DNA from: Jatrophihabitans sp.
GTDB lineage: Bacteria; Actinomycetota; Actinomycetes; Mycobacteriales; Jatrophihabitantaceae
Reading direction: 5' to 3'
DNA: 64,000 bases
Assembly: GCA_036261575.1 (NCBI GenBank)
Contig: DATAKO010000049.1
Coordinates: 40 to 64,039 of the forward strand
The notes below the pieces were generated by a model, which saw nothing but the letters and a program-made list of their open reading frames with translations, had not been told where the DNA came from and searched no databases. The position numbers and the translations under genes were made by a program. This document shows, piece after piece, positions 15,281 to 47,258 of the stretch. How positions within the stretch are numbered: the stretch's first letter is position 1; each line of letters begins with the position of its first letter.

Positions 15281-15284
15281 GGTG

Positions 15285-20629: not shown

Positions 20630-20633
20630 CGCC

Positions 20634-27953: not shown

Positions 27954-28969
27954 CCGGCCGGCTGGCCCGGGCCGAGCTGGCCGCCGCGGGAATCGAGCAA
28001 GCGCAGCTGGTTGAGGGCTATTGCCGGGCGCGGCGGCTCAATGCCGAGCACGGCAAGACCTACTACCTGGCCGCGCTGCTGCTGCCGGCGGCCAAGCGTC
28101 CCTACGTGCACGCGCTGTACGGCTTCGCCCGGTATGCCGACGACATCGTCGATCGGCTCGATCCGGCCAGCACCGCCGACACCCGGGCTGCGGAATTCGA
28201 CCGCTGGTGTGCCGGCTTTCGCGACGATCTGGCCGCCGGCCGCTCGAGTGACCCGCTGATCGCCGCGCTGATCGACACCAGCACCCGCTGGCAGTTGCCG
28301 CACCAGCTGTTCGGTGACTTCCTGCGGTCGATGGCGATGGACCTGACGGTGACCGAGTACCGCAGCTTCACCGAGCTGGCCGAGTACATGTGGGGTTCGG
28401 CAGCGGTGATCGGCCTGCAGATGCTGCCCATTCTCGGCTACCGGGCCGGCGAGCGGGAACGCGCGGAGCATTGCGCAGCCCAGCTGGGCCTGGCGTTCCA
28501 GCTCACCAACTTCCTGCGCGACGTGGGCGAGGACCTGGACCGTGGCCGGGTCTACCTGCCGCAGGAGTCGCTGCAGTCGTGCGGGGTCGATCTGGGCCAG
28601 CTGCAGCACGCTCGCCGGACCGGCCGGGTGGACCTGCCGATCCGCCGGTTGCTGGCGTTGGAGATCGAGCGGGCGCGCAGTCTCTACCGCGCGGCCGAGC
28701 CGGGCATCGACCTGCTCGAACCGCCCTCGCGCGAGTGCATGCGCACCGCGTTCGTGCTGTACGGCGAGATCCTGGACCGGATCGAGCAGACCGATTACCA
28801 GATCTTCGCCGGCCGCATCGCGGTTGCGCTGCCCCGCCGAGTGCAGGTGGCGGCCGGTGGACTGGCCCGATCGCGCTGGTCGCGGATGACCAGCCAGGTC
28901 AGGGGCCTTGCTCGATCCGATCGGCGATCAGCCGGTACCAGTCCTCGCCGGGGCGGCCGGTCTCGATGA
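27950..28969 (+). CDS. crtB: Phytoene synthase
   Basis: HGKTYYLA, YGFARYADDIVD, QLTNFLRDVGEDLDRGRVYLP. Confidence 0.93.
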   Translation: MTGRLARAELAAAGIEQAQLVEGYCRARRLNAEHGKTYYLAALLLPAAKRPYVHALYGFARYADDIVDRLDPASTADTRAAEFDRWCAGFRDDLAAGRSSDPLIAALIDTSTRWQLPHQLFGDFLRSMAMDLTVTEYRSFTELAEYMWGSAAVIGLQMLPILGYRAGERERAEHCAAQLGLAFQLTNFLRDVGEDLDRGRVYLPQESLQSCGVDLGQLQHARRTGRVDLPIRRLLALEIERARSLYRAAEPGIDLLEPPSRECMRTAFVLYGEILDRIEQTDYQIFAGRIAVALPRRVQVAAGGLARSRWSRMTSQVRGLARSDRRSAGTSPRRGGRSR

Positions 28970-29741
28970 ACCACGTGGCGCCCGCCTCGGCGTAGTCGGC
29001 CAGCAGCTCTGTCCGCCCGTCCGGCTCGGTCAGCTCGCTCCAGACCACCAGGTCGTAGCCGGCGAGCGGGCGCTGCTGCGCGAGATAGGCCCGCACCTCG
29101 GCCAGATCGTCCACCGAGGGACGCACCACCCGGCCTGCCGCGAACCGGATCGGCACCGCACCGTCCCAGCGCGCTGCCCGGGCGAGCGGGCGCCGGGCCG
29201 GCAGCACGCCGCCGACCCAGACCGGGATGCTGCCGCGGACCGGGCGCGGGGTGAAGCGCATCGGTGCCAGCTGGTAGTACGGTCCCTGGTGGTGGAACCG
29301 CTCGCCGCTGAAGAACTGCGCAAGCAGCTGCAGCCCCTCGTCGAGCAGCTCGGCGCGGCCTCGATCGTCTGACCGCTCCCCGAAATGTGCGAAGTCCCCG
29401 GCCGCCGGTGAGCCCAGCCCGACACCGAGCACCAGCCGGCCGTTGCTGAGGCGGTCGATGCTCACGCACTGCCGGGCCAGCGTCCAGGGGCGGCGGCGGG
29501 ACAGCGGCGTCACCATCGGCCCGAGGGTGATCCGCTCGGTGCGATCGGCCAGCACCGCCAGCACGGTCCACGGGTCGAGGATGTCCGGGCCGTTCCCGTC
29601 GTTGGCGAACAGCATGTGATCCCAGATGAAGAAGCCGTCGAAACCGGCCGCCTCCGCCTGCACGCCGAGCGCGACCAGCGCGGCCGGGTCAGTGCCGAAA
29701 CACGGGACCGCGAGCGCCCGTCGCGGTGCCGCGGCGGTCAC
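28899..29741 (-). CDS. LLM-class flavin/F420-dependent oxidoreductase
   Basis: GFDGFFIWDH, DPW, RITLGPMVTPL, GRLVLGVGLG, IPVWVGG. Confidence 0.88.
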   Translation of the reverse strand: MTAAAPRRALAVPCFGTDPAALVALGVQAEAAGFDGFFIWDHMLFANDGNGPDILDPWTVLAVLADRTERITLGPMVTPLSRRRPWTLARQCVSIDRLSNGRLVLGVGLGSPAAGDFAHFGERSDDRGRAELLDEGLQLLAQFFSGERFHHQGPYYQLAPMRFTPRPVRGSIPVWVGGVLPARRPLARAARWDGAVPIRFAAGRVVRPSVDDLAEVRAYLAQQRPLAGYDLVVWSELTEPDGRTELLADYAEAGATWFIETGRPGEDWYRLIADRIEQGP

Positions 29742-30778
29742 GAACCTGCCCCGGCCGGCTCGCCCTGGCGGCTGATCGCAGCGCGCGCCAGCGCCAACGC
29801 CCGAGCCTGCGCCAGGCCATCAGCGGCAACTGTGTGCCGGGCCGGCTCCACACCCGCCACCGCGCGCTGCACGTGCCGGATGGCGTGCTCGAAGGCGGTG
29901 CCGGCGGCAGCCGGCCAGCGCTCGACCAGCCGGCCGTCCCGCCACAGCTCGATGCCGTCGGCCGGCGTCGGGTGAAACGGGTTGCTGAGCCGCAGCTCGC
30001 CGCCGGTGCCCAGGACGCGGGTGAAGGTGGACGGTCCGCGCCGGAAGCCGGCCGACAGCAGCAGCCGGCTCCCGGCAGCGAAGTCCAACGCTGCGGCCAG
30101 TTCGATGTCGACGCCGGCGCCGGCCAGTCCGATGGCCTCGCCGGTACCGGCCGGGTCGAAGCTGGCCAGGCCGGCCGCCTGCACCGGCTCCGTGCCGAAC
30201 AGCAGCCGGGCCAACCTGATCGGGTAGCAGCCCACATCGAACAGCGCGCCACCGCCGTGCTCGGTCGAGAAGCGGAGATTGCCCCGATCGCGCAACACGA
30301 AATGGAATTCCGACTGCAGCTCGGTGACCTCGGCGACGGCGCCGTCGGCCAGCAGCTGGCGCAGCGCGTCCGTCTGCGGGTGGAACGGGAAGACGAACGC
30401 TTCCCAGATCAGCGGCTGACCGGTGGTGGTCAGCGTCGCCACCTCATCGGCCTCGATCGCCAGCGGCTTCTCGCAGAGCACGGCCTTGCCGGCAGCCGCC
30501 GCGCGCGCGGCCCACCGGATGTGTTCATCGTTGGGCAATGCGATGTACACCGCATCGATCCGCTCGTCCTCCAGCACGTCCTGGTAGCGCACCGCGGCGC
30601 CGACGCCGTGGCGCTCGGCCCAGCCGGAGGCCCGGTCTGGATCCCTGCTGCCCACCAGCTCGGCGTGCCCACCGGCCGCCCGCAGCGCCGGCAGGAATGC
30701 CTTGGCCGCGATGTTGGCGGTGCCCAGCACCGCCCAGCTCAGGCCGGGATCTGCTTGCGCAGAGGGGGTAAACGGCAT
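29738..30778 (-). CDS. Gfo/Idh/MocA oxidoreductase
   Basis: WAVLGTANIA, DAVYIALPN, VLCEKPL, GGGALFDVGCY; AAGGAG RBS. Confidence 0.92.
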   Translation of the reverse strand: MPFTPSAQADPGLSWAVLGTANIAAKAFLPALRAAGGHAELVGSRDPDRASGWAERHGVGAAVRYQDVLEDERIDAVYIALPNDEHIRWAARAAAAGKAVLCEKPLAIEADEVATLTTTGQPLIWEAFVFPFHPQTDALRQLLADGAVAEVTELQSEFHFVLRDRGNLRFSTEHGGGALFDVGCYPIRLARLLFGTEPVQAAGLASFDPAGTGEAIGLAGAGVDIELAAALDFAAGSRLLLSAGFRRGPSTFTRVLGTGGELRLSNPFHPTPADGIELWRDGRLVERWPAAAGTAFEHAIRHVQRAVAGVEPARHTVAADGLAQARALALARAAISRQGEPAGAGS

Positions 30779-30851
30779 CTCAGCTCCTTCGTCGCGCGGC
30801 GGTCGCAGTCCCTTGGATGCGCCGCCTTATGTGATCCACAACACCACTCTG

Positions 30852-30871
30852 GGCGATTGTCGACAATCGCC
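30852..30871. promoter_or_regulatory. Perfect 20-bp palindrome, probable GntR/FadR-family operator
   Basis: GGCGATTGTCGACAATCGCC in the 143-bp divergent gap; TTGT-CG-ACAA core; gntR ends the rightward operon. Confidence 0.75.
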
Positions 30872-30921
30872 TGTCGCCTTAGGCTTCGGTTCTATTCAAG
30901 CGGACAGGAGGTGGAAACGCG

Positions 30922-31953
30922 GTGAACGACGAGCTCAACGTGTTGATCGCTACCTACCTGGAGCCCGAACTGGTCGAGCGGATCGCGTCGTCGGACCCCC
31001 GGCTGCGCGTGCTGTACGAACCGGATCTGCTGCCGGTGCCACGATATCGCTGCGATCACGGTGGTCAGCCTCGCACGCTCAGCCAGGCAGAGCAGCAACG
31101 CTGGCAGGCCATGCTCGCGGCGGCCGATGTCTCCTTCGACTTCGACTGGCAGGAGCCGGCCCGGCTGCCCGAGCGTGCGCCTCGGCTGCGCTGGGTGCAG
31201 GCCACCAGCGCCGGCATCGGGGCATTCATGCGCCGCACCGGGCTGCACGAGCACGAGCTGACCGTGACCACGGCTGCGGGCATCCATGCGGTCCCGCTCG
31301 CCGAGTTCGCGGTGGCGGGTGCGCTGTACTTCATCAAGGGATTCGAGCAGCTGCGCCGGCGGCAGGCCGCCAAGCAGTGGCAGCGCTACACGACCGAGCA
31401 GCTGGCCGGCCGGTCCGTGACCGTGATCGGCCTCGGCGGTATGGGCTCGCGCACCGCCGCGCACTTCGCCGCATTGGGCGCCCGGGTCACCGGTCTGGGT
31501 CGGCCGGGCGGCCAGTACAACCTGCCTGACGGGGTGACGGTCCGCAGCACCGAGGAGCTGTCCGAGGTGTTGCCGGCCACCGATGTGCTGGTGCTGTGCT
31601 GCGCGCTCACCCCGCAGACAGAAGGCATGATCGGCGCCGCGCAGCTGGCCGCGTTGCCCGCCGGCGCCATCCTGATCAACCTGTCCCGCGGCCAGGTGGT
31701 CGACGAGCCGGCCCTGATCGAGGCGCTGGCCGCCGGCCGGCTCGCCGGCGCCTGCCTGGACGTGTTCACCGTCGAGCCGCTGCCGGCGGATTCGCCGTTG
31801 TGGGAACTGGACAACGTCATCATCTCGCCGCACTCGGCCTCGACCGTGGACACCGAGAACGCCGCGCTGACCGAGCTGTTCCTGCAGAACCTGCAGGCCT
31901 GGCGTGCCGGGCAGCCGCTGCGCAACACCTACCGGCGCGAGCTGGGCTACTGA
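30922..31953 (+). CDS. D-2-hydroxyacid dehydrogenase
   Basis: WVQATSAG, IGLGGMG, INLSRG, LDVF, EPL, ISPHSA; AGGAGG RBS. Confidence 0.92.
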   Translation: MNDELNVLIATYLEPELVERIASSDPRLRVLYEPDLLPVPRYRCDHGGQPRTLSQAEQQRWQAMLAAADVSFDFDWQEPARLPERAPRLRWVQATSAGIGAFMRRTGLHEHELTVTTAAGIHAVPLAEFAVAGALYFIKGFEQLRRRQAAKQWQRYTTEQLAGRSVTVIGLGGMGSRTAAHFAALGARVTGLGRPGGQYNLPDGVTVRSTEELSEVLPATDVLVLCCALTPQTEGMIGAAQLAALPAGAILINLSRGQVVDEPALIEALAAGRLAGACLDVFTVEPLPADSPLWELDNVIISPHSASTVDTENAALTELFLQNLQAWRAGQPLRNTYRRELGY

Positions 31954-32903
31954 TGAACGGAACCCTCGAGATGGCCGATACGACCGCGGCGCCGGCGCTG
32001 TCCGGCACCTGGTACATCGCTCCAACCCCCTTCACCGACGCGGGCGAGGTCGACGTCGATAGCCTGCAGGCCGTCGTTGCCGCCGCCGCCCGCTGGCACG
32101 CCGAAGGCATCACCATCCTCGGCGTGATGGGGGAGGCGCCGGCGCTCAGCGACGACGAGCGGCGGCTGGTGCTCAGCACGGTGGCAGCGGCGGCGCGGGG
32201 ACTGATCCCGTTCGCGGTGGGCTGCTCCTCGCCATCGGCCGGACTCACCGCGGCCCGGGTCGCCGAGGCCTGCAGCGCCGGCGCTGCAGCGGTGATGATC
32301 GCCGCCCCGACTCTGCTGCGCGATACCGACCAGCTCGGCCCGTTCTTCGCCACCGCCACCGCCGAGGCCACGGTGCCGGTCATCGTGCAGGATGAGCCGG
32401 CGGCGACCGGCGCGCCGTTGCCGGTGTCGGCGCTACTGGCCGCGTTGCAGGCGAGCGCCAGCACGACGGTCAAGTTGGAAGACCCGCCGACGCCACCCAA
32501 GATCGGCCGGCTGCTCGCGGCACGGCCCGAGCTGACCGTGTTCGGCGGTCTCGGTGGCGTCAGCGTGTACTCCGAGCTGGCTCGCGGGGCGGCCGGCACC
32601 ATGACCGGCTTCGCTTATCCCGAGATCCTGCGGGCGATCCGGCTGGCCTTCGAGGCCGGCGATCGGGCCCGTGCGGCCGCCGTCTACGACCGGTTCCTGC
32701 CCTACCTCGTGTTCGAGGGCCAGCCGGTGGCGGGCCTGGGCATCCGCAAGGAGGTGCTGCGCCGGCGCGGCGTGCTCGCCACTGCGCGGACCCGGGGCGC
32801 GCGCCCGTTGCTGGACCAGGCGACCGCAGCAGAGCTGGACGACGTGTTGGACCGGGTCGGCCTGGTGCCTGCGCCCGACGCACTCGACGTGGTCGGCGGA
32901 TGA
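31953..32903 (+). CDS. DapA/NanA-family class I aldolase/dehydratase
   Basis: PTPF, LGVMGEA, VIVQDEP, VKLED (Schiff-base Lys), GTMTG; TGATG coupling. Confidence 0.88.
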   Translation: MNGTLEMADTTAAPALSGTWYIAPTPFTDAGEVDVDSLQAVVAAAARWHAEGITILGVMGEAPALSDDERRLVLSTVAAAARGLIPFAVGCSSPSAGLTAARVAEACSAGAAAVMIAAPTLLRDTDQLGPFFATATAEATVPVIVQDEPAATGAPLPVSALLAALQASASTTVKLEDPPTPPKIGRLLAARPELTVFGGLGGVSVYSELARGAAGTMTGFAYPEILRAIRLAFEAGDRARAAAVYDRFLPYLVFEGQPVAGLGIRKEVLRRRGVLATARTRGARPLLDQATAAELDDVLDRVGLVPAPDALDVVGG

Positions 32904-33691
32904 GTCGCCCGATGCGCCGTCGGGGTGCGGTGGTCGGTGGGGGCACCGCCGGCCTGGGTGAGGCGATCGCGCAGCGGCTGGCCGCGGACGGGACCGAGCT
33001 GCTGCTCTGGTCGCGCAGCGAGCAGCGGTTGGCCGAGGCCGCCGAGCGGATCTCGAGCACCCACGCAGTGCCGGTGTACACGGTCGCTGCCGATGCCGGC
33101 AGCCCCGACGCCGCCGCCCGGGTGGCCGAAGCTGCGCAGCGAGTGCTGCCCAGCGTCGACGTCCTGGTACTCAACGCCGGCGGGCCGAAACCGTGCCCAC
33201 CGGATCGGACCGATGCCGACGACTGGCGCGCAGCGCTGCAACTGCTGACGATCACGCCGATCGAGCTGGCCACCCGGCTGCTGCCGGGGATGCGCGAGCG
33301 CGGCTGGGGGCGGGTGCTCGCCGTGCTGTCGTCCGGAGTGCGCGAACCGCTGCCGGAGCTGGCTTACTCCAACTCCGGCCGGGCGGCGCTGGCCAGCTGG
33401 TTGAAGACGGTCGGCCGGCACGTGGCCGGTGACGGAGTGACGGTGAACGGCATCGTGCCCGGCCGGATCGACACCGACCGGGTCGCCGCGCTGGACCGGG
33501 CCGCGGCGGAGCGGCAGGGCCACGATGTCGCGGAGGTGCGGCGTGCGAGCGAGGCCGGCATCCCGGCCGGTCGCTACGGCCGGCCGGAAGAATTCGCCGC
33601 AGTGGCGGGCTTTCTCTGCTCGGACGCGGCAAGCTACCTGACCGCCAGCCTGATCTCCTGTGACGGCGGCCTGATGCGGAGCCTCACGTGA
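32900..33691 (+). CDS. SDR oxidoreductase
   Basis: GGGTAGLG, LNAGGP, YSNSGR, VTVNGIVPG, CDGG. Confidence 0.9.
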   Translation: MSRPMRRRGAVVGGGTAGLGEAIAQRLAADGTELLLWSRSEQRLAEAAERISSTHAVPVYTVAADAGSPDAAARVAEAAQRVLPSVDVLVLNAGGPKPCPPDRTDADDWRAALQLLTITPIELATRLLPGMRERGWGRVLAVLSSGVREPLPELAYSNSGRAALASWLKTVGRHVAGDGVTVNGIVPGRIDTDRVAALDRAAAERQGHDVAEVRRASEAGIPAGRYGRPEEFAAVAGFLCSDAASYLTASLISCDGGLMRSLT

Positions 33692-34929
33692 GCGGCGCCG
33701 GCCCTGCGGTGTCGCCGCTGGTCGACGCGCTGCCGCCGTCGGGCATCCGGGCCATCGCCACCGCCGCCTGGGCGATCGAGGACGCGGTGCACCTGGAGTT
33801 CGGCGAGCCGGACTTCGACACGCCCGAGCACATCGTCGAGGCCGGCTTCCGGGCGGCCCGGCGCGGCGCCACCCGGTACGGCCCGTCCGCGGGGCTGCCG
33901 GCGCTGCGCGAGGCCATCTGCGCCAAGCTCGCCCGCGACAACGGCGTGGCCGGGGTTCGGCCGGAGCAGGTCATCGTCACGCCCGGCGGAGTGGGCGCGA
34001 TCGCCCTGGCATATCGAGCGGTTCTCGACCTGGGAAGCGAGGTCCTGGTACCCGATCCTGGCTGGCCGAACCTGGCCGGCATCGCTCAGCTGTACGGCGC
34101 GGAGCCGGTGCGTTACCGACTCGCGGCCGCCACTGGCTTCCGTCCCGACCTGGACCGGCTCGACGCTCTGGTCACCGAGCGGACCCGCGCCCTCGTGATC
34201 AACTCGCCGGCCAATCCACTGGGCACCGTGTGGCCGCCGGACACCCTGCGTGAGCTGGCCGACTGGGCGACCCGGCGCGGGCTGTGGATCATCTCCGACG
34301 AGTGCTACGACCAGCTCTGGCACGACCGGCCGGCCACCTCGCTGCTCCGGGTGGCGCCGGAGGCGCCGGTGATCACGGTGTTCTCGCTGTCCAAGAGCTA
34401 CGCGATGACCGGCTGGCGGGTCGGCTATGCCGTCGGTCCGGCCGAGCTGATCGGCCACCTGACCAGGATTCAGGAGACCTGGACCTCCTGCGTCAGCACA
34501 CCGACCCAGCATGCCGCGCTGGCCGCGCTCAGCGGGGACCAGGCCGGCCTCATCACGATGCGCTCGGCCTACCGCCGGCGGCGCGACGCAGCGCTGCGTC
34601 GCGCGGGCGAGCTCGGCCTGGACGTGCACCGGCCGGACGGCGCGTTCTACCTGTGGCTGCGGCTGCCGGACCGGATCACCGACTCGACCGGCTTCGCCCT
34701 GCATCTGCTGGAAGAATCCGGCGTCGCGGTGGCACCGGGCCGTGCCTTCGGGCCGGCCGGTGAAGGTCAGCTGCGGCTCTCGCTGGCCGCATCACAGGAA
34801 CACCTCGAACGTGGCCTGACGGCCATTCGGCACGCCTTGGATCGCATCGAAGACAGCTACTGCACCGACCAGGCGGGCCGACCCACCACCCCCGCACAAC
34901 GATCGGCCGCCAGCGTCGCCGGCCGATGA
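33688..34929 (+). CDS. PLP-dependent aminotransferase class I/II
   Basis: GEPDF, YGPSAG, NSPANPLG, SDECY, SLSKSYAMTGWRVG (PLP Lys). Confidence 0.93.
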   Translation: MSGAGPAVSPLVDALPPSGIRAIATAAWAIEDAVHLEFGEPDFDTPEHIVEAGFRAARRGATRYGPSAGLPALREAICAKLARDNGVAGVRPEQVIVTPGGVGAIALAYRAVLDLGSEVLVPDPGWPNLAGIAQLYGAEPVRYRLAAATGFRPDLDRLDALVTERTRALVINSPANPLGTVWPPDTLRELADWATRRGLWIISDECYDQLWHDRPATSLLRVAPEAPVITVFSLSKSYAMTGWRVGYAVGPAELIGHLTRIQETWTSCVSTPTQHAALAALSGDQAGLITMRSAYRRRRDAALRRAGELGLDVHRPDGAFYLWLRLPDRITDSTGFALHLLEESGVAVAPGRAFGPAGEGQLRLSLAASQEHLERGLTAIRHALDRIEDSYCTDQAGRPTTPAQRSAASVAGR

Positions 34930-34934
34930 CTCCG

Positions 34935-34957
34935 GGTGCGGGACGGCCACCCGCACC
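34935..34957. repeat. 8-bp stem hairpin after aminotransferase
   Basis: GGTGCGGG-ACGGCCA-CCCGCACC. Confidence 0.6.
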
Positions 34958-35133
34958 GCACGTACCGCCACAAGCACATCGCAGCACAGAGCACGCACTT
35001 CACCCGAGCACGACCCAGCAATCCGGTGCCAGCGTCGGCACCTCGACACAGTGCCCCGAGGCGGTCACTGGCAACGCTCCACACGGCAGCGGTGAATCCG
35101 CACCCTGCCCGTCCGACTCTGTCAGGAGAGACG

Positions 35134-36777: not shown

Positions 36778-36788
36778 TCACCCGCGGC

Positions 36789-36822
36789 TGAGGTGGCCCG
36801 GGCACCCTCCCGGGCCACCTCA
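36789..36822 (+). terminator. 14-bp perfect hairpin after SBP gene (mRNA-stabilising or partial terminator)
   Basis: TGAGGTGGCCCGGG-CACCCT-CCCGGGCCACCTCA, no U tract. Confidence 0.75.
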
Positions 36823-36883
36823 CGACCGGGAAACATCCCGCCGCCAGCTCCATGCCCAGCGTCGACGCGACAAGGACATCGCC

Positions 36884-38925: not shown

Positions 38926-39893
38926 CACTCGAACCGGCCGATCACCTGTCCGCTATGGCCACCGGCGCCACCCAGGCGCCCACCCTGGGCCTGGCATCGG
39001 CCGGCGAGTCGGCCGAGCTGCCGCCGGCCGCGCCCGGCCTGGGCCGGCGGATCCGGCACAGCCTGCGCTCGGACAAACCGGCGATCGTGTCGATCACGCT
39101 GCTGGTGCTGCTGGCGCTGGCCGCGGTGCTCGCTCCGCTGCTGGCCCCGCACGACCCACTGCACACCTTTGCCGACGGCATCAGCTCCGACGGTGCACCG
39201 CTCGGTCCGGGCGGCAAGTTCCCGCTCGGCACCGATCCGAGCGGCCGGGACGTGCTGTCCCGGCTGCTGTTCGGAGCGCGGGTGTCGCTCACCATCGGCA
39301 TCCTGGCCAACGGGTTGGCCACCGTGATCGGGGTGTTCGTCGGCCTGTGCGCCGGCTACCTCGGTGGCTGGGTCGAGACCATCCTGATGCGGCTGACCGA
39401 CATCGTGATGTCCTTCCCGATCCTGCTCTTCTGCATCGCCCTGATCGCGGTCACCGGGCCCAGCGAACGCAACGTGATCATCGTGATCGCGTTGATCTAC
39501 TGGACAACGCTGGCCCGGATCACCCGAAGCCTGGTGCTGTCGCTGAAGGAGCGGGAGTTCGTCGTCGCGGCCCGGGCCCTCGGGCTGAGCCACTGGCGGA
39601 TCATGCGCAAGCACCTGTTCCCGCACCTGGTGCCGACGATCATCGTCTACGCCACCCTGGGTGTGGCGTCCTCCATCCTGATCGAGGCATCGCTGTCCTT
39701 CCTCGGCATCGGGGTGCCGATTCCCAACCCGTCGTGGGGTCAGATGATCGACCAGGGCCGGGAGTACTACCAGATCGCGCCGTGGCTGCTCATCTTCCCC
39801 GGCCTGTGCCTGGTGTTGACGGTGCTCTCGTTCAACCTTGCCGGTGACTGGTTGCGCGACCTGCTCGACCCGACTGCTGCGGAGCGTCGCTGA
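38922..39893 (+). CDS. ABC peptide transporter permease (OppC/DppC)
   Basis: LGTDPSGRDV, GARVSL, EFVVAARALG, LSFLGIG, PSWG. Confidence 0.95.
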   Translation: MTLEPADHLSAMATGATQAPTLGLASAGESAELPPAAPGLGRRIRHSLRSDKPAIVSITLLVLLALAAVLAPLLAPHDPLHTFADGISSDGAPLGPGGKFPLGTDPSGRDVLSRLLFGARVSLTIGILANGLATVIGVFVGLCAGYLGGWVETILMRLTDIVMSFPILLFCIALIAVTGPSERNVIIVIALIYWTTLARITRSLVLSLKEREFVVAARALGLSHWRIMRKHLFPHLVPTIIVYATLGVASSILIEASLSFLGIGVPIPNPSWGQMIDQGREYYQIAPWLLIFPGLCLVLTVLSFNLAGDWLRDLLDPTAAERR

Positions 39894-39894
39894 C

Positions 39895-40821
39895 ATGACT
39901 GGATTCCTCTACCGCCGCATTCCGCAGACGGTCATCGTGCTGTTCGGCGTGGTGACGCTCGCGTTCTTCATGACGCACGTGGTGCCCGGCGACCCGGCCC
40001 GGCTGATCGCCGGTCCGAACGCCAGCGCCGCCACGGTCGCCTCGATCCACCGTCAGCTCGGTCTCGATCGCAGCCTTGCCTACCAGTACTGGCTGTTCGT
40101 CAAGGGCCTGGTGCACGGCGACCTCGGCAACAGCTACGCGCTGGCCGGCCAGTCGGTCAGCTCTCTCATCCTGCACGCGTTGCCGGTCAGCCTGTGCGTC
40201 GCGGTCGCCGGTGTGCTGTTCGAGGTGCTGCTCGGCGTGCCGGTCGGCATCATCGCCGCCTACCGGCCCAAGGGCCTGCTGGACCGGCTCACCACCCTGG
40301 CGACGCTGCTCGGCCTGTCCGCGCCACCGTTCTGGCTCGGGCTCATCCTGCTCTACGTTCTTGCATACAAGTTCAGCGTATTCCCGCTCACCGGCTGGCA
40401 GTCGCCGTACCTGAACTACCTGCTGCTGCCCGGCTTCACGCTCGGCCTTGGCGGCGCGGCGTGGTACGCCCGGATGACCCGCACGAATATGATCGAGGCG
40501 CTGCGCAGCCCGTACGTGCAGTTCGCACGCGCCAAGGGCATGCCAGAGCGGCACATCCTGCTACGGCATGCGTTGCGCAACGTGCTGTCGCCGCTGATCA
40601 CCATGCTGGGCATGGATCTCGGCTACTTCCTCGGCGGCGTCGTCGTGATCGAATCCGTCTTCGGGCTGCCCGGCGTCGGCAAGCTCACCTTCGACGCCAT
40701 CGGCACCCTGGACATCCCCATGATCACCGGCGCCGTGCTGTTCGCGGCCTTCTTCATCGTCCTGATGAACCTGCTGGTCGACTTCGCCTACTCGGTGGTC
40801 GATCCGCGCGTTCGTCGCTAG
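39895..40821 (+). CDS. ABC peptide transporter permease (OppB/DppB)
   Basis: PGDPA, GDLGNS, YVQFARAKG, ESVFGLPGVG, DPRVR. Confidence 0.95.
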   Translation: MTGFLYRRIPQTVIVLFGVVTLAFFMTHVVPGDPARLIAGPNASAATVASIHRQLGLDRSLAYQYWLFVKGLVHGDLGNSYALAGQSVSSLILHALPVSLCVAVAGVLFEVLLGVPVGIIAAYRPKGLLDRLTTLATLLGLSAPPFWLGLILLYVLAYKFSVFPLTGWQSPYLNYLLLPGFTLGLGGAAWYARMTRTNMIEALRSPYVQFARAKGMPERHILLRHALRNVLSPLITMLGMDLGYFLGGVVVIESVFGLPGVGKLTFDAIGTLDIPMITGAVLFAAFFIVLMNLLVDFAYSVVDPRVRR

Positions 40822-40873
40822 CCATGCCGGCGCGGCCGGTTTCCGATATTGCCTGTGCTGAAAGGAAGAACTG

Positions 40874-42004
40874 ATGGATAGCAAGCTTCGTGTCGCAGTC
40901 GTGGGGGCGGGCCGTTGGGCCCAGCGAGCGCACATCCCGGGCTGGCAGCGCGACCCGCGGGTCGAGGTGGTCGCCCTGGTGGACACCGACGAGCAGGTGC
41001 TGGCCGAGGCCGGTGCGCGCTTCGGCGTGAGCCGGTTGCACACCGACTACCGTGAGCTGCTCAGCGACCCGGACATCGACGTGATCGACGTGGCCACCGC
41101 CAACACCGCCCACTTCGAGGTGTCCGAGGCCGCACTGCTGGCCGGCAAGCACGTGCTGTGCGAGAAGCCGGTGCACCACGATTACCGGCAGACCCAGCGG
41201 CTGGCCGACCTGGCCAAGTCCCGCGGTCTGAAGACGAAGCTCGGCTTCACCTTCCGCTACGCCCCGGCCGTGCAGTACGCCCGCTCGCTGATCGAGCAGG
41301 GCTTCGTCGGCACGCCCTACATCTTCAACGGCTACGAGCAGAACAGCCAGTGGATCGACCCGCAGACCCCGATGCGCCAGGTCGACCCGAACGCCGACCC
41401 GGCCGTCATCGCCACCTCGTCCATCGAGGGCTACGGTGCGCCGATCATCGACATCATGCACGAGTGGGTCGCTGCACCGCTGACCTCGGTGGTGGGCACC
41501 ATGCGCAACTTCGTGCCGGAGCGGATGGTGCGGGCGACCGGCCAGATGCAGCGGCTGAACATCGACGACGGCGACATGTGGATCTGCGAGTTCGAGAACA
41601 ACGTGATGGCATCGATCCAATCCTCCTACGTCACCGTCGGCAACTTCCCCGGCATCGAGGCGCGTATCTTCGGCTCCGAGGGCGCCATCATCGTCCGGCT
41701 GGTGGACGAGTTCGGGATCTGCCAGACGATCAAGACCGCCACCAAGGATGAGGTCGAGTTCGTCGAGCGGGAGATCCCGCAGCAGTTCTTCCCGGCGGGC
41801 GGCGCGTCCACCGAGGACTGGGACTTCCTGTTCTACTCCAGCCTGTGCCTGGACTTCACCACCGAGATCCTGTCCGGTGAGGCGGTCAACCAGGGTGACT
41901 TCGCCCAGGGCGCGCTGGTGCAGGAGACCATCAACGCCTTCGAGACCTCGTTCCGCAACCGGGCCTGGACCCGGTTCCCGCTCAGCGCCGAGCTCAACTC
42001 GTGA
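40874..42004 (+). CDS. Gfo/Idh/MocA oxidoreductase
   Basis: VAVVGAG, DVIDVAT, HVLCEKP; GAAAGGAAG RBS. Confidence 0.92.
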   Translation: MDSKLRVAVVGAGRWAQRAHIPGWQRDPRVEVVALVDTDEQVLAEAGARFGVSRLHTDYRELLSDPDIDVIDVATANTAHFEVSEAALLAGKHVLCEKPVHHDYRQTQRLADLAKSRGLKTKLGFTFRYAPAVQYARSLIEQGFVGTPYIFNGYEQNSQWIDPQTPMRQVDPNADPAVIATSSIEGYGAPIIDIMHEWVAAPLTSVVGTMRNFVPERMVRATGQMQRLNIDDGDMWICEFENNVMASIQSSYVTVGNFPGIEARIFGSEGAIIVRLVDEFGICQTIKTATKDEVEFVEREIPQQFFPAGGASTEDWDFLFYSSLCLDFTTEILSGEAVNQGDFAQGALVQETINAFETSFRNRAWTRFPLSAELNS

Positions 42005-43470
42005 CCGCTCACGAGTGGGGTGAGCTGGCCGAGGACGCGACGGCGGTCCGGCTGATCGAGGACGCGCTGGATGCGGCCGGCCCCGCCGAGTTCGCCGACG
42101 TCCGGCTGATCGAGGCGGAGGAGCTGCGGCTCTACAGCCAGCTCGGTGCCGACAGCGATGAGCGCGTCGAGCACAACGTCGGCATCGGTGTCCGGGTTCT
42201 GCTCGACGGTGCATGGGGATTCGCGTCCAGGCCGCTGCTGGATGCGGCCGATCCGGCCAGAGCCGCGCGTCAGGCGCTGGCCTCGGCACGCGCCTCGGCC
42301 GGAACCACGGCGCCGGCCCGGCTGGACCCGATGCCGGCCGCCAGTGGTCGCTACCAGACCGAGGTCGAGCAGGATCCGTTCGCGGTCTCCGCCGAGGAGC
42401 GGCAGCGGCTGCTGGCCGAGGTGATCTCCAACGCGGCGGCGACGGCCGGCATCGTCTCGGTGCAGGCCGGCATCAACGCCAAGCGCCAGCACCGGCACTT
42501 CGGCAACAGCGAGGGCTCCCGCCAGCACCAGCACTTCGTCGAGACCGGAGCCGGCCTGGTCGCCAACGCGGCCGGCCATGACGACGTCCAGCGGCGCAGC
42601 TACCCCAACTCTTTCCACGGCAACACCGCCGCGGCCGGCTGGGAGTACCTGCGCACCCTCGACCTGGCCAACCAGGCCGTCCGGGTCGGCGAGGAGGCGG
42701 TGGCGCTGCTCACCGCTCCGATGGCCGATCCCGGTTATGCCGACGTGGTGATCGGAGCCCAGCAGGTCTCGCTGCAGATCCACGAATCGGCCGGGCACGC
42801 GCTGGAGCTGGATCGCATTCTCGGCGATGAGGCCAACTACGCGGGTACCTCTTTCATCACCGCCGAGGACATCGGCACGCTGCGTTACGGCTCGCCCGCG
42901 GTCACCATCACCTCCGATCCCACCATCGGCGGCACCCGAGGCAGCTTTGCCTTCGACGACGAGGGCACGCCGGCCCGGCGGACCCGCCTGATCGATCGGG
43001 GCGTGGTGGCGGCCACGCTGTCCAACCGGGACGCAGCCGGCCGCTCCGGGCAGCAGCTGACCGGTGCCGCCCGTGCTGACGGCTGGGCCTACCTGCCGGT
43101 CTGCTTCGCCACCCACGTCTACCTCGAGCCGGGCCAGGGATCGCTGGACGAGCTGCTCGACCGGATGGGCGACGGCTACTACATCGACGACAACCGCAGC
43201 TGGTCGATCGACAACCGGCGCTGGAACTTCCAGTTCGGCACCGAGGTCGCCTACGAGGTGCGCAAGGGAAAGCGGGGCCGGCTGATGAAGAACTTCTCCT
43301 ACGGCGGCATCACGCCGCAGTTCTGGGGATCGGTGGAGGCGGTGGCCGGGCCGGAGGAGCTGCGCATCTTCGGCTACCCGTGCGGCAAGGGTGAGCCGAA
43401 GCAATGGGGCTTCCTGAGCCACGCCGCGGCACCGATGCTGGTACGCAACCTGCGGATCGGGGTCGCCTGA
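42001..43470 (+). CDS. tldD: TldD metalloprotease
   Basis: VRVLLDGAWGFAS, HESAGHALE (HExxxH), FDDEG, QFG, CGKGEP (Cys ligand). Confidence 0.92.
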   Translation: MTAHEWGELAEDATAVRLIEDALDAAGPAEFADVRLIEAEELRLYSQLGADSDERVEHNVGIGVRVLLDGAWGFASRPLLDAADPARAARQALASARASAGTTAPARLDPMPAASGRYQTEVEQDPFAVSAEERQRLLAEVISNAAATAGIVSVQAGINAKRQHRHFGNSEGSRQHQHFVETGAGLVANAAGHDDVQRRSYPNSFHGNTAAAGWEYLRTLDLANQAVRVGEEAVALLTAPMADPGYADVVIGAQQVSLQIHESAGHALELDRILGDEANYAGTSFITAEDIGTLRYGSPAVTITSDPTIGGTRGSFAFDDEGTPARRTRLIDRGVVAATLSNRDAAGRSGQQLTGAARADGWAYLPVCFATHVYLEPGQGSLDELLDRMGDGYYIDDNRSWSIDNRRWNFQFGTEVAYEVRKGKRGRLMKNFSYGGITPQFWGSVEAVAGPEELRIFGYPCGKGEPKQWGFLSHAAAPMLVRNLRIGVA

Positions 43471-44870
43471 TGACCGGCCTGATCGAGTTCGCCCCGCCAC
43501 TGACAGCAGACCGCGCGCTGGCCGCGGTCGAGCAGGCGGTCGCCGCCTGCCCGGCCGACGAGGTCGAGGTGACCTTGCTCGGCCGCAGCGGTGAGTACAG
43601 CCGTTTCGCCGGCGAGCGCATCCACCAGCCGCAGGACATCACCGAGGTGAGCGTCAGCGTCAAGGCCATCGTCAACGGGCATGCGGCACGGGCCGCGACC
43701 AGCAGCCTGGACCGGGTGGCCGAGACCGCGCGGCGGGCGGGCGAGCTGGCCGGTGGCCGGACCCGGCTCAACGCCGCGGCGGGCAGCGCGCGGGTCGCGG
43801 CCGGCCAGGGCGAGAATGCCGCGGAACCTGTGCCCGAACTCAGCCATGAGGACACGCTCGCCTTCGACGCCGGCCGCCGGGTGGCCCTGATCGCGCGGGC
43901 CATGCACGCGGCTGCCGAGCACGGTGGCCGGGCCGCGGGCATGATCGGTCGCGCTTACACCCAGATCGCGGTGGGCACCAGCACCGGTGTGCGGCGGCAT
44001 GCGGTGGCAACGGAGGCCAGCGGTTCGCTGACCATGGCGATCGACGACGGCACCGCGCACTGGGTGGACCTGCACCGCAGCGCCGACGCGCTCGACGCGG
44101 CAGGCAGCATCGACCGGGCGCTGCAGCGCGCGCTGGCCGGCCGGGGCCGGATCGAGATGCCGGACGGTGAGTTCACGGTGGTGCTCGGCCCGCAGGCGGC
44201 CGGTGAGCTGATCGGCTTCCTGGACGCGCTGGGCTTTTCCGGCGAGCTTGCGGCGGCCGGCGTCGGGGTGTGGGCACGGCAGGCCGGCCGGCGGCTGGTG
44301 TCCGAGCTGGTGACGGTGGCCGACGACGCCACCAGCAGCTACGGCCTACCGATCCCGTTCGACTTCGAGGGTGTCAGCAAGCGCCGGGTGCCTTTCTTCG
44401 CGGCCGGCGTGGTGGGCGAGCCCGTCACGGACCTGGCCACGGCGGCCGTGCTCGGCCGGGAGTCCAGTGGCAACGCGCACATCGCCCGCGAGGAGGTGCC
44501 CAGCCCGGTGGCCGCCAACCTGGTGCTGCAGCCGGGTACCGACACGGAGGAGTCCCTGATCGCCGGCGTGGAACGGGGGGTGTACGTCGAGCGGTTCTGG
44601 TACACCCGGTTGGTCGACCGGCAGGCCTCCACCATCACCGGCGTCAGCCGGGACGGCTGCTTCTTGATCCGCGACGGCCGGCTGGCCGAGCCGGTGGCGA
44701 CCGGCCGGTTCACCCAGTCGGTACTGGACTTCCTGGCCAGCGTGGACGGGGTGGCCGACCGGGTGCGCTCGCAACCGGTGATGAACGTGTGGAACGGCAG
44801 CGCGTCGGCACCGGCCGTACGCGGTCACCGCTTCCGCTTCGGCAGTCGCCCGGTCGGCGGTGCCCGATGA
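43470..44870 (+). CDS. tldE: TldE/PmbA partner subunit
   Basis: RFAGERIHQ, PFDFEG, TGVSRDGCFLIRDG; no HExxH; TGATG coupling to tldD. Confidence 0.88.
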   Translation: MTGLIEFAPPLTADRALAAVEQAVAACPADEVEVTLLGRSGEYSRFAGERIHQPQDITEVSVSVKAIVNGHAARAATSSLDRVAETARRAGELAGGRTRLNAAAGSARVAAGQGENAAEPVPELSHEDTLAFDAGRRVALIARAMHAAAEHGGRAAGMIGRAYTQIAVGTSTGVRRHAVATEASGSLTMAIDDGTAHWVDLHRSADALDAAGSIDRALQRALAGRGRIEMPDGEFTVVLGPQAAGELIGFLDALGFSGELAAAGVGVWARQAGRRLVSELVTVADDATSSYGLPIPFDFEGVSKRRVPFFAAGVVGEPVTDLATAAVLGRESSGNAHIAREEVPSPVAANLVLQPGTDTEESLIAGVERGVYVERFWYTRLVDRQASTITGVSRDGCFLIRDGRLAEPVATGRFTQSVLDFLASVDGVADRVRSQPVMNVWNGSASAPAVRGHRFRFGSRPVGGAR

Positions 44871-45742
44871 GGCCCCGTACCAACGCCGATCGATTGATCA
44901 CCCAGACCCTGGCAGGTGAGGTGTGGCCGCCGCTGGCGGACCGGCACGCCTACCGGGTCGACGCGGACGGCCAGCCGTTCCTGCTGCCCGGCATGGGCGG
45001 GGTGACCCTGGGCGTGCACCTGGGCGACCCGGCCACCGGCTACGCGGCCGACCACCTGGAGCCGGGCCTGTCCGTCCGGCACGCACAGCCGGGCCCGAAC
45101 CTGGCGTTGCAGTACCTCAGCTGCGTGGGCAACACGGTGACGGTCCGCTCCGGCCCGGCTGCCGGCGCCACCGGCGTGGTGATCGGCCAGCACGCCTACG
45201 TGCTGGTGGACATGGCCGACGAGGCGATGCGCGAGGTGTGCACCGGCGACCAGGTCGTGGTGACCGCCCGTGGCCAGGGTCTGCGCCTGCTGGATCATCC
45301 CGACGTGGTCGTGAAGAACCTGGATCCGGAGCTGGCCGGCAGGATGCCGCTGCAGACCTGTCCGGACGGCCGGCTGGAGGTCCGGGTGGCCGCCCGGGTG
45401 CCGGCGGCCGCGGTCGGCGCCGGCGCCGGCATGGTCTCCGAGTTCGCCAACACCGACCTGATGGGCGCCTACGCCGGCCAGGGGGAGGACCTCAGCCTGG
45501 GCCTGGAACGGCTGCGGATCGGGGACCTGGTGCTGCTGGAGGATCAGGATCACCGCTACGGCCGGGGCTTTCACGAGGGCTACCTGAGCATCGGCGTGAT
45601 CAGCACCGGGCACTGCAGGCTGTTCGGGCACGGCCCGGGCCCGTCCTCCATCCTGTCCGGACCGGCCTCGGCCTTCGCGATCGTCGACGACGAGTCGGCC
45701 AACCTGGCGCACTACCTCCTGGAAGGGGAACCGGCCCGATGA
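44867..45742 (+). CDS. DUF4438 (TM1086-like) protein, copy 1
   Basis: RTNADRLI, GGVTLGV, DHLEPGLS, SCVGN, GQGLRLLDHPDV, GHGPG match my recollection of TM1086. Confidence 0.82.
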   Translation: MRPRTNADRLITQTLAGEVWPPLADRHAYRVDADGQPFLLPGMGGVTLGVHLGDPATGYAADHLEPGLSVRHAQPGPNLALQYLSCVGNTVTVRSGPAAGATGVVIGQHAYVLVDMADEAMREVCTGDQVVVTARGQGLRLLDHPDVVVKNLDPELAGRMPLQTCPDGRLEVRVAARVPAAAVGAGAGMVSEFANTDLMGAYAGQGEDLSLGLERLRIGDLVLLEDQDHRYGRGFHEGYLSIGVISTGHCRLFGHGPGPSSILSGPASAFAIVDDESANLAHYLLEGEPAR

Positions 45743-46599
45743 GCGTGCCGACGGCAGTCGCGGTCAACCTGATCGGAACGGTGGAGCATCCGGAATTCGG
45801 CGGCTCCCCCTTCGCCGTCGCGATGGACGGCAGCCCCTACCTGCCGGTCGGCGATGCCGGCATCGTGCTCGGGGTGCAGCTGGGGGACCTGGTTTTCGGC
45901 CTGGAGGGTGATCACGTCGCACCGGGCGCCACCCTGACCCACCCGGACCAGGCGGCCCGGCACGCGCTGACCTCGTTCGCCTGCCTGGGCAACGAGGTCC
46001 GGGTCCGCACGGGCGGGGCTGCCGGTGCCACCGGCCGGGTGCTGGGCAAGCGAGGTGAGGCCGGCCGGGTCATCGTGGTGTTCGAGCCGGACGTGCTGGC
46101 CACCCTGGCTCCCGGCGATGCGATCCAGGTCCGCGGCTTCGGCCAGGGCAGCAGCTGCCCGCCGGAGCTGGCCGCGGCCGGCGCGGTCGTGCTGAACTGC
46201 GACCCGGCGATGCTGGACCGGCTGCAGGTGCGGCTGGGGGAGCGGGCCTCGTTCCCGGTGCGGGCGGTGGTGCCCTCGAAGTTGGTCGGCAACGGCCTGG
46301 GCCGGCCGGCGCAGCAGTGGGACCTGGACCTGGCCGTGACGGTCGGCAACGCCGAGCGCTGGTCGATGGCGCAGCTGCGCTTCGGTGACCTGATCGCGAT
46401 CACCGACCTGGACGTGCGGCACAACGCCGGCTACCGGCACGGCTGGACCACGGTGGGCGTGACGGTGCACGGCGCGAGCCGGTTGCCCGGCCACGGGCCC
46501 GGCGTGATGCCGGTGTTCTGCGGGCCGTCCGAGCTGGTCGACGTGCGCCCCGATGCCGCGGATCATCGCGGTGTCACGTCCGATCGCCTATGGTCCTAG
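45739..46599 (+). CDS. DUF4438 (TM1086-like) protein, copy 2
   Basis: GDHVAPG, ACLGN, GFGQG, LRFGDLIAITD, GHGPG; collinear with copy 1. Confidence 0.78.
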   Translation: MSVPTAVAVNLIGTVEHPEFGGSPFAVAMDGSPYLPVGDAGIVLGVQLGDLVFGLEGDHVAPGATLTHPDQAARHALTSFACLGNEVRVRTGGAAGATGRVLGKRGEAGRVIVVFEPDVLATLAPGDAIQVRGFGQGSSCPPELAAAGAVVLNCDPAMLDRLQVRLGERASFPVRAVVPSKLVGNGLGRPAQQWDLDLAVTVGNAERWSMAQLRFGDLIAITDLDVRHNAGYRHGWTTVGVTVHGASRLPGHGPGVMPVFCGPSELVDVRPDAADHRGVTSDRLWS

Positions 46600-47258
46600 A
46601 CGTGTCCGAAGCACACCTGCCACCGGGAACGCCGGATACCGCAGTGCTGCACATGTCACTGCCGGAGTCGGTGCACCAGATCCTGCGCCGGCGCATCCTC
46701 AACAACGAGCTGCGGGCCGGCACCCGGCTGGTCGAAGCCAACCTGGCGCTCGAACTGGGCGTCAGCCGCTCCACGCTGCGGCTGGCACTGCGGCAGCTGG
46801 CACAGGAGGGCCTGGTTGACGTCGCGCCGCGGCGGCACAGCACGGTCACCCGGATGTCGTATGAGGAGGTTCGCGACGCCTGTTACGCCCGGTACGTGCT
46901 GGAGGTGGGCGCGCTGCGCGCCATCGCCGACGACCAGCTGGAAGCGCTGGCCAGCGCGCTCGACGCCGTCGCGGCGCGCATGACGGAAGCCGCCAAGGCC
47001 AGCGATCTGGCGCTGCTGGTCGACCTGGACACCGAGTTCCACGGCTGCATCGTGCACGCGTCCGGCAAACGCCGGCTGGCCGGGCTGTGGTCGACCCTGG
47101 ACGCCCAGATGGGTGCGTTGATGCGTTCGTCGATGGAGGATCAGGCGATCGACCTGGCCGAGGCCGGCCGGCGGCACCAGCAGTTCGCCGACGTGGTCCG
47201 CTCCGGCGACCGGGACCGGATCGCGCACGAGCTCTACCACCACTACCTGCGCGACTGA
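46590..47258 (+). CDS. GntR family regulator (FCD domain)
   Basis: LVEANLALELGVSRSTLRLAL HTH; LDTEFH FCD motif. Confidence 0.92.
   Translation: MVLDVSEAHLPPGTPDTAVLHMSLPESVHQILRRRILNNELRAGTRLVEANLALELGVSRSTLRLALRQLAQEGLVDVAPRRHSTVTRMSYEEVRDACYARYVLEVGALRAIADDQLEALASALDAVAARMTEAAKASDLALLVDLDTEFHGCIVHASGKRRLAGLWSTLDAQMGALMRSSMEDQAIDLAEAGRRHQQFADVVRSGDRDRIAHELYHHYLRD

Follow-up and report, generated by a model that had tools for sequence, protein, structure and literature searches.

Within the window, by which we mean the whole 64,000-nt stretch of Jatrophihabitans sp. DNA analysed here (assembly GCA_036261575.1, contig DATAKO010000049.1, positions 40-64,039; G+C content about 71%), positions 28899-47258 hold a gene cluster in which an Opp/Dpp-type importer, a TldD/TldE pair, two DUF4438 proteins and several oxidoreductases are encoded together with a GntR/FCD regulator. 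The gene map, based on codon-position G+C and Pfam scans, is unambiguous. It bears out the genes named in an original prediction made from the sequence, which Pfam supports, as well as their tight coupling and the palindrome in the divergent gap. From this gap two genes run leftward and 15 rightward, one more than the 14 first counted:

28899-29741, minus strand: F420-type luciferase-like oxidoreductase (LLM; PF00296, E 5e-38)
29738-30778, minus strand: Gfo/Idh/MocA oxidoreductase GfoL (PF01408 and PF22725)
30852-30871, no strand: perfect 20-bp palindrome, candidate GntR/FCD operator, in the 143-nt divergent gap
30922-31953, plus strand: D-isomer 2-hydroxyacid dehydrogenase (HADH; PF02826, E 2e-49)
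31953-32903, plus strand: DHDPS/NAL-family enzyme (PF00701)
32900-33691, plus strand: short-chain dehydrogenase/reductase (SDR; PF13561 and PF00106)
33688-34929, plus strand: class I/II pyridoxal phosphate aminotransferase (PF00155, E 2e-73)
35134-36777, plus strand: SBP_bac_5 lipoprotein, type-1 binding protein (PF00496)
36789-36822, plus strand: perfect 14-bp stem-loop after the binding-protein stop codon
36884-37867, plus strand: Opp/Dpp-type ABC ATPase D (PF00005 and PF08352, oligo_HPY)
37864-38925, plus strand: Opp/Dpp-type ABC ATPase F (PF00005 and PF08352, oligo_HPY)
38922-39893, plus strand: C-type permease (OppC_N with BPD_transp_1)
39895-40821, plus strand: B-type permease (BPD_transp_1_N with BPD_transp_1)
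40874-42004, plus strand: Gfo/Idh/MocA oxidoreductase GfoR (PF01408 and PF22725)
42001-43470, plus strand: TldD-like catalytic subunit (three PmbA_TldD domains: PF01523, PF19290, PF19289)
43470-44870, plus strand: TldE-like non-catalytic subunit (PmbA_TldD_3rd domain, PF19289)
44867-45742, plus strand: DUF4438-1 (PF14505 and PF20999)
45739-46599, plus strand: DUF4438-2 (DUF4438 family)
46590-47258, plus strand: GntR/FCD regulator (PF00392 and PF07729)

Consecutive genes overlap by 1-4 nt at nine junctions and by 10 nt at the junction of DUF4438-2 and gntR, and the stop codon of the C-type permease gene lies one base ahead of the start of the B-type permease gene. The remaining gaps in the rightward run measure 204 nt (after the aminotransferase gene), 106 nt (with the 14-bp hairpin) and 52 nt. 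The first of these results from the start of the binding protein at the ATG at 35134, which comes with the ribosome-binding site AGGAGA and with a signal sequence of the lipoprotein type, the last residues of which are LTATAC. This 204-nt non-coding gap (34930-35133) contains no copy of the operator and could be the site of an internal promoter. The stem-loop at 36789-36822 (14-bp perfect stem, 6-nt loop) lies in the 106-nt gap ahead of the first ATPase gene, begins 12 nt past the binding-protein stop codon and may stabilise the mRNA or, as a partial terminator, determine how much binding protein is made relative to transporter. A scan of consensus promoters and terminators gave counts no higher than in shuffled sequence.

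Co-conservation and a common operator

We scanned one genome per GTDB species with a five-sequence DUF4438 alignment, which retrieved the closest clade only; at least 537 of the species representatives have a close relative of DUF4438-1, and the best 80 loci were taken. These are annotated as Actinomycetota, save one (L069, Candidatus Melainabacteria), and include Micromonosporaceae, Streptosporangiaceae, Nakamurella, Microbacteriaceae, Intrasporangiaceae, Nocardioides, Acidimicrobiia and Solirubrobacterales. The window proteins were compared with the loci by tblastn, and presence was counted over the 59 loci with full 10-kb flanks:

DUF4438-1 and DUF4438-2: 59/59
GfoR: 58/59, at an identity of at least 60%
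GntR: 58/59
Opp-type ATPase: 55/59
TldD: 35/59
TldE: 34/59
GfoL: 34/59
HADH: 33/59, including 22/24 of the loci without TldD
LLM orthologue (identity of at least 50%): 19/59, in varying position
aminotransferase orthologue: 8/59 (8/35 with TldD, 0/24 without TldD)
DHDPS orthologue: 5/59
SDR orthologue: 5/59

GfoR, the DUF4438 pair and GntR form the invariant core. HADH, GfoL and LLM recur on differing strands and in differing order, and the retention of gene content while order is shuffled across lineages argues for functional linkage and not for the ancestry of a fixed block. The locus is one functional unit, co-conserved and co-regulated, as had been predicted: the gene set recurs in shuffled order across dozens of species and shares a common operator. 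The leftward GfoL and LLM genes belong to this unit, since in three loci (L011, L025 and L066) they share a single strand with the rest, in the order GfoR-GntR-GfoL-HADH-DHDPS-SDR-aminotransferase-TldD-TldE-DUF4438-1-DUF4438-2-LLM. The DHDPS, SDR and aminotransferase genes are not constant parts: orthologues of the window's versions occur in only 5-8 of the 59 loci. A second, non-orthologous DHDPS family is present in loci without TldD/E and a second SDR family in 27 loci. Clustering of open reading frames (ORFs) across 83 loci revealed no further widely conserved family beyond these two; two large 'families' that it returned proved to be antisense shadow ORFs and were discarded.

A contig from a metagenome-assembled genome (MAG) with 64% G+C (L089, 6867-17539) encodes an SDR, two DUF4438 proteins, a Gfo protein, a SnoaL_2 protein, a further SDR and an SBP_bac_5 ABC system, and no TldD/E. 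Its DUF4438-1 is 47% identical to that of the window and its Gfo protein 29% identical to GfoR, so that the linkage of the DUF4438 pair to a Gfo gene and an Opp-type system is older than its linkage to TldD/E. In Asanoa (L004), a block with AP_endonuc_2, PfkB, Cgl0159, KduI/IolB and thiamine pyrophosphate enzyme/IolD genes (14043-19374) lies 1.7 kb downstream of the cluster, probably by coincidence; such iol (inositol) genes recur in two loci only and were rejected as part of the system.

The palindrome in the divergent gap is perfect over its 20 bp (GGCGATTGTC/GACAATCGCC), and the candidate GntR operator stretch reads GGCGATTGTCGACAATCGCC. Its 12-mer core, ATTGTCGACAAT, has a single exact match in the 64-kb window; with up to two mismatches, 0.47 matches are expected by chance. 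At this tolerance the core is present in 52 of the 83 related loci, nearly always in promoter regions upstream of the binding-protein, HADH or GfoR genes, with eight intragenic matches. Loci without TldD/E have a third copy between a divergent SDR/ATPase pair and the second DHDPS-family gene, which places SDR and DHDPS functions in the regulon even where the window's own orthologues are missing. The regulator joins a GntR winged helix-turn-helix (PF00392) to an FCD effector domain (PF07729), as in the FadR/FCD subfamily, and the predicted operator fits the t.GT...AC.a palindrome type of that subfamily. FCD-type regulators usually sense carboxylates, so a keto- or hydroxy-acid effector would fit.

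In Cnuibacter physcomitrellae (L003), a RidA-family (Ribonuc_L-PSP) gene and a different aminotransferase gene follow the cluster on the opposite strand (12805-14545), and an exact TTGTCGACAA site lies just past them at 14603-14612.

The DUF4438 pair and the oxidoreductases

The DUF4438 family is small, with 646 representatives at E <=1e-3 among 1.84 billion. No literature was found under DUF4438, and under TM1086 of Thermotoga maritima nothing beyond strain names and a survey of crystallisation; nor does either DUF4438 protein match an NCBIfam model, all of which agrees with the original description of the system as undescribed. TM1086 (PDB 3DCL, 3N99) is the sole solved DUF4438 protein and is closely matched by DUF4438-1 (E 4e-59, 40% identity), whose AlphaFold2 model (predicted local distance difference test score 93.3) has a TM-score of 0.91 to 3dcl. 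Both Pfam domains (PF14505 and PF20999) and the TM1086 fold are confirmed for DUF4438-1. A fold search of this model against the PDB returned TM1086 only, the rest being weak KOW/SH3-like fragments at E >=0.25.

Polar residues conserved family-wide are N6, E65, C86, N89, D128, D197, D220 and N279, which lie in the motifs DHxEPG, SCxGN and GHGPG. DUF4438-1 retains every one of these residues and is far more conserved than DUF4438-2, with which it shares 34% identity: across 63 orthologues, E65, C86, N89, H109, D128, D197, D220 and H255 are conserved at 98-100%. In the 65 orthologues of DUF4438-2, E65 is replaced by Ala in 88% and H109 by Arg in 98%, and H229, R233 and N279 are gone. Judging from this substitution pattern, DUF4438-1 is presumed to be the active subunit and DUF4438-2 its degenerate partner, an asymmetry that mirrors that of TldD and TldE.

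Outside the clade, in the Firmicutes, Zixibacteria and JGI contig examined, DUF4438 is single-copy, whereas here a diverged pair is fixed beside a Gfo gene. The distant contexts (Paraclostridium, Firmicutes MAGs, Zixibacteria, the JGI contig) share no conserved neighbours and are uninformative on function. In two Firmicutes loci (L087 9001-9882 and L090 9001-9885), the start of the single DUF4438 gene overlaps the 3' end of an upstream VanZ-like (PF04892) gene by about 20 nt, which suggests translational coupling of the two in a setting very unlike that of the actinobacterial clusters. A link to opine-catabolic plasmids was considered and rejected, there being no DUF4438 gene on any PLSDB plasmid.

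Both Gfo proteins carry PF01408 (Rossmann) and PF22725 (C-terminal domain), with VAVVGAGRWA as the Rossmann motif and LCEKPV as the EKP motif of GfoR. The closest characterised relatives of GfoR act on sugars and cyclitols, namely levoglucosan dehydrogenase (6a3f), the C-glycoside 3-oxidase DgpA and scyllo-inositol dehydrogenase; the closest solved structures to GfoL are 4had and the sugar 3-ketoreductase KijD10. LLM is nearest to the Rv2161c-type subfamily (TIGR03619, 146 bits, which is under the cutoff of that model), and HADH is of a generic type (191 bits to a haloarchaeal D-2-hydroxyacid dehydrogenase model; solved relatives 4n18 and 5mh5). The DHDPS-family protein, previously taken for a DapA-like aldolase, is nearer to L-2-keto-3-deoxyarabonate (L-KDA) dehydratase (7c0c, 99 bits) than to true DapA (about 50 bits, at most 55) and matches 3dz1 at 141 bits; its score against TIGR00674 is 60 bits, compared with a cutoff of 206, and against PF00701 55 bits. 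The Lys of its TVKLEDPP motif, which we take to be the catalytic Schiff-base Lys, aligns with MLKHEDWP of 3dz1.

Among the cluster proteins we found no known lactonase, sugar-acid dehydratase (IlvD- or enolase-type), TIM-barrel keto-sugar lyase or aldehyde dehydrogenase, which leaves the DUF4438 pair as the sole candidate for the step after oxidation by a Gfo enzyme. Pairing of a Gfo-type oxidoreductase with a dedicated cleaving enzyme is familiar from 3-keto-glycoside pathways such as DgpA with DgpB/C and levoglucosan dehydrogenase with LgdB, in which both DgpA and levoglucosan dehydrogenase oxidise at C3. As in those systems, the Gfo gene here is genetically fixed by a two-subunit partner, and a second or third Gfo enzyme could re-reduce the product; the partner here, however, is DUF4438, and a xylose-isomerase-like TIM-barrel gene is absent from the cluster. 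The non-phosphorylative pentose pathway of Azospirillum (3FKK/7C0C) likewise has Gfo-family enzymes and a DHDPS member, that of the cluster being nearest to L-KDA dehydratase, but the cluster differs from it in having no known lactonase, IlvD- or enolase-type dehydratase or aldehyde dehydrogenase, and a DHDPS orthologue is found in just 5 of the 59 loci.

The importer and the TldD/TldE pair

The importer is complete for the Opp/Dpp type, with an SBP_bac_5 lipoprotein, OppB- and OppC-type permeases and two ATPases with oligo_HPY tails, for which OppD-type models score highest (364 bits). The label 'peptide ABC' initially given to it is too broad. Among solved structures, the window's binding protein is most similar to 8UPI (MeAmi_SBP; 350 bits, the next being at 198 bits), which binds L-amino-acid amides and no peptides (bioRxiv 10.1101/2024.02.22.581678). 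Among the contacts of MeAmi_SBP, Tyr32, Trp410 and Asp413 are kept, Trp34, which closes the pocket, is replaced by Ala and Trp435 by Gln, and the Met408 loop, whose insertion likewise closes the pocket, is three residues shorter, so that the full ligand-contact set is not retained. The amine clamp (Trp/Asp) is kept in 26 of 26 orthologues and Tyr32 in 24 of 26, and the Trp34 and Trp435 substitutions are fixed in 25-26 of 26. The wider pocket implied by these changes predicts a ligand larger than an amino-acid amide. MeAmi_SBP uptake operons, like the cluster, combine SBP_bac_5, an ABC system and an amidohydrolase, and the Trp410/Asp413 clamp and Tyr32 are common to both. They differ in that the amidase here is TldD/E and not FmdA_AmdA, a domain that Pfam scans did not find in the cluster, in the Trp34, Trp435 and Met408 changes, and in the Gram-positive host, the lipoprotein and the added redox enzymes and DUF4438 proteins found here.

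Loci without TldD/E have a type-2 binding protein, which we liken by overall score (285 bits) to AapF of Pseudomonas sp. PDC86, a protein that feeds a signalling system. AapF (PDB 7KZ8/7KZ9) is its closest solved homologue and was crystallised in 7KZ9 with HEHEAA, an N-substituted glycinamide. Both leads thus point to a small protonated-amine compound, probably larger than a simple amino-acid amide. In Nakamurella flavida (L001/L002, 2184-3515), the cluster starts at the permeases and is preceded by a 443-aa ORF without Pfam match at the place expected for the binding protein and ATPases; the front end of the transporter may have decayed or been replaced there.

The tldD and tldE genes are adjacent paralogues with a 1-nt overlap, and both products have PmbA_TldD domains. 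The metal ligands and clamp residues of E. coli TldD were defined by Ghilarov et al. 2017 (PMC5810440; PDB 5NJ5). The HESAGHALELD and C-terminal PCGK motifs of the TldD-like protein align with H262, E263, H267, E270, D272, C454 and K456 of that enzyme (IHESAGHALELD aligned with LHEAVGHGLEGD), while TldE has LIGFLDALGFSGE at the aligned site and no HExxxH motif. The metal site of TldD is intact and, as far as the alignment allows us to judge, the pair looks functional. In E. coli, as here, TldD and TldE are adjacent paralogues, with HExxxH, the E270/D272 equivalents and the C-terminal CGK in TldD only. The window pair differs in its low similarity to E. coli TldD (only 79 and 55 bits), in its position between Gfo and DUF4438 genes in a catabolic operon and in being dispensable in 24 of 59 related loci.

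Given this dispensability, the central role in proteolytic release first assigned to TldD/E is not supported. In 23 of the 24 full loci from which the pair is missing, GfoR adjoins DUF4438-1 (GfoR end no more than 400 nt from DUF4438-1). Of the 24 loci whose binding protein is of type 1, 22 have TldD, which also co-occurs with the aminotransferase (eight loci with TldD as opposed to none without). Being tied to one transporter type and to the aminotransferase, with a patchy presence, TldD/E is an accessory and not a core component, most plausibly an optional amide-cleaving module whose released product is handled by the aminotransferase. There is a precedent, by described function, in LmbIH/CcbIH, TldD/E-like proteins listed as N-deacetylases of a mycothiol-derived amino-sugar conjugate in lincosamide biosynthesis (PMC12945683 Table 1; PMC5518657): there TldD/E-type amide hydrolysis acts in a small amino-sugar conjugate and not on a polypeptide. 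LmbIH/CcbIH are biosynthetic, whereas the window pair lies in a catabolic operon. If our assignment is true, the pair would be a second example of TldD/E serving small-molecule metabolism instead of peptide trimming.

Proposed pathway and its alternatives

We tentatively favour, at a little short of an even chance, the view that a GntR/FCD repressor controls the locus as a self-contained catabolic regulon, widespread in soil Actinomycetota, in which an imported amine-bearing sugar or polyol conjugate is oxidised by GfoR and then cleaved by a DUF4438 heteromer. The preference for catabolism, already part of the original prediction, agrees with the binding-protein-dependent importer and the lack of room for a precursor peptide. 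In the proposed order of steps, the Opp/Dpp-type importer would take up a small compound via the lipoprotein, which would clamp its free or protonated amine. GfoR, as an NAD(P)-dependent enzyme, would oxidise a secondary alcohol of the sugar- or polyol-like part, and the DUF4438-1/DUF4438-2 heteromer would break a bond in the oxidised intermediate by elimination, hydrolysis, dehydration or deamination. Here and in some 60% of the relatives, the TldD/TldE metallo-amidohydrolase would remove an aminoacyl, peptidyl or acyl group, and the aminotransferase would handle the amino acid so released. GfoL, SDR, the F420-dependent LLM, the DHDPS-type enzyme and HADH would route the carbon skeleton via keto and hydroxy acids to central metabolism, and an acid intermediate would probably lift the repressor off the ATTGTCGACAAT palindrome. 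Sugar-amino-acid conjugates, Amadori compounds and opine-like compounds are substrate classes compatible with the evidence.

A bolder and more doubtful proposal is that the DUF4438 heteromer founds a new class of enzymes, unique in its fold, and cleaves or deaminates a keto intermediate made by Gfo, that the two together constitute a new oxidative route for an abundant amine-bearing glycoconjugate (a glycated amino-acid amide or an aminoacyl-amino sugar) in soil Actinomycetota, and that TldD/E is a recruited small-molecule amidase. What is new is the conserved core of a Gfo protein and the DUF4438 pair and the modular use of TldD/E; the combination of a repressor, an ABC importer and catabolic enzymes is a known architecture. 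The cluster provides the first firm functional context for DUF4438, with a fixed Gfo partner, a dedicated importer and a repressor with a conserved operator. It may also point to an amine-containing carbon or nitrogen source of importance in soil and peat, the operon being kept in Micromonosporaceae, Streptosporangiaceae, Acidimicrobiia and Solirubrobacterales.

Several observations weigh against the regulon as proposed. In Firmicutes, Zixibacteria and one unclassified JGI metagenome contig, DUF4438 is encoded as a single copy in unrelated surroundings with no Gfo gene, so the ancestral role of DUF4438 need not involve Gfo products; as the fold has no recognisable catalytic relative, DUF4438 could also be something other than an enzyme, such as a scaffold or a regulator. 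In loci of the Micromonosporaceae type, genes for HADH, GfoL, LLM and DHDPS are all missing within 10 kb, which means that the downstream funnel either is not universal or has its genes at other sites in the genomes concerned. The ligands of Opp-family binding proteins may be peptides, metals, opines or sugars, and similarity at the level of 285-350 bits is not enough to assign one. Furthermore, the 80 loci are all closest relatives, whose counts describe a single clade, and the sequencing runs that contain the window sequence are soil and air metagenome DNA runs only.

The substrate might instead be free of nitrogen, which we consider unlikely. An oligosaccharide, glycoside or sugar imported by the Opp-type system would then be degraded by 3-keto-glycoside elimination or a Weimberg/Dahms-type route, with the DUF4438 pair as the missing lyase, lactonase or sugar-acid dehydratase and TldD/E and the aminotransferase as unrelated additions. 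Such a route would suit the loci without TldD/E, in which three Gfo genes, HADH, SDR, DHDPS, LLM and the DUF4438 pair are accompanied by neither an amidase nor an aminotransferase, and it would explain why the cluster has a 2-keto-3-deoxy-acid enzyme yet no known dehydratase family. The resemblance of GfoR to levoglucosan dehydrogenase and DgpA is also in its favour, as are two precedents: L-KDA dehydratase has a Gfo-family L-arabinose 1-dehydrogenase as its partner in the Azospirillum pathway, and in Thermotoga there are Opp-type binding proteins for sugars. It is contradicted by the importer, since both binding-protein types are nearest to amine-amide binders and the clamp Asp and Trp are strictly conserved. 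Moreover, TldD/E and the aminotransferase are reported as inserted between GfoR and DUF4438-1 in translationally coupled form, and a RidA gene and an aminotransferase gene flank the Cnuibacter cluster.

Import of a modified peptide or peptidyl natural product, with TldD/E as the key trimming enzyme acting in a cage and the other enzymes processing a released unusual residue, appears improbable to us. The intact TldD site, the importer of the peptide (Opp/Dpp) family with its top-scoring OppD-type models, the retained amine-clamp Asp of peptide binders and the co-occurrence of the aminotransferase with TldD/E would all be expected from it. Yet 24 of the 59 full loci lack TldD/E while keeping all else, and the deeper-branching L089 cluster lacks it as well; none of about 100 di- and tripeptides was bound by the closest solved binding proteins, and three Gfo-type and several other sugar-type redox enzymes would be hard to account for.

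A more specific version of the favoured regulon, namely the salvage of an aminoacyl- or acyl-amino-sugar or amino-cyclitol (a fragment of an aminoacyl-glucosamine-type antibiotic or thiol, an Amadori amino-acid amide, chitosan-type amino sugars), in which TldD/E would cleave the amide and the DUF4438 pair would deaminate or cleave the oxidised amino sugar, is in our estimation quite improbable. It would be consistent with an amino-carboxamide-type pocket widened on the amide side, with the deacetylation of mycothiol-derived lincosamide intermediates by TldD/E-like enzymes, with the RidA imine/enamine deaminase adjoining the Cnuibacter cluster and with the Actinomycetota origin of all 80 loci save L069. 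Its basis is a comparison with moderately similar homologues, and loci without TldD/E would require a non-acylated substrate.

Finally, it is hardly credible that the genes are chance neighbours (a generic peptide transporter, a housekeeping TldD/E and unrelated oxidoreductases) or that they serve the biosynthesis of a metallophore or of a ribosomally synthesised and post-translationally modified peptide (RiPP), even though TldD/E often acts as a RiPP leader peptidase and Opp-type importers accompany opine-metallophore clusters, given the shuffled-order co-conservation and the common operator across families and orders, and gaps of 0-204 nt that hold no precursor-sized ORF of coding-type composition. 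With neither a precursor gene nor a maturase domain in the cluster, a RiPP cluster was set aside, as was a Cnt-type metallophore system, for which the CntA model is a weak match (53 bits) and biosynthetic genes, such as one for a nicotianamine-synthase-like protein, are missing among the cluster domains. The flanks are likewise unrelated to the cluster and consist of genes for carotenoid-type enzymes and GAF-SpoIIE, EAL-PAS and GGDEF-EAL signalling proteins. Both 3' ends of the cluster overlap convergent neighbours, the LLM stop region an SQS_PSY ORF by 71 nt (28899-28969) and gntR a GGDEF-EAL gene by 16 nt (47243-47258). Further upstream, positions 15207-22403 hold a signalling run, unrelated to the cluster, in which two GAF-SpoIIE phosphatases stand around a histidine phosphatase, together with an NAD(P)HX dehydratase and an EAL-PAS protein.

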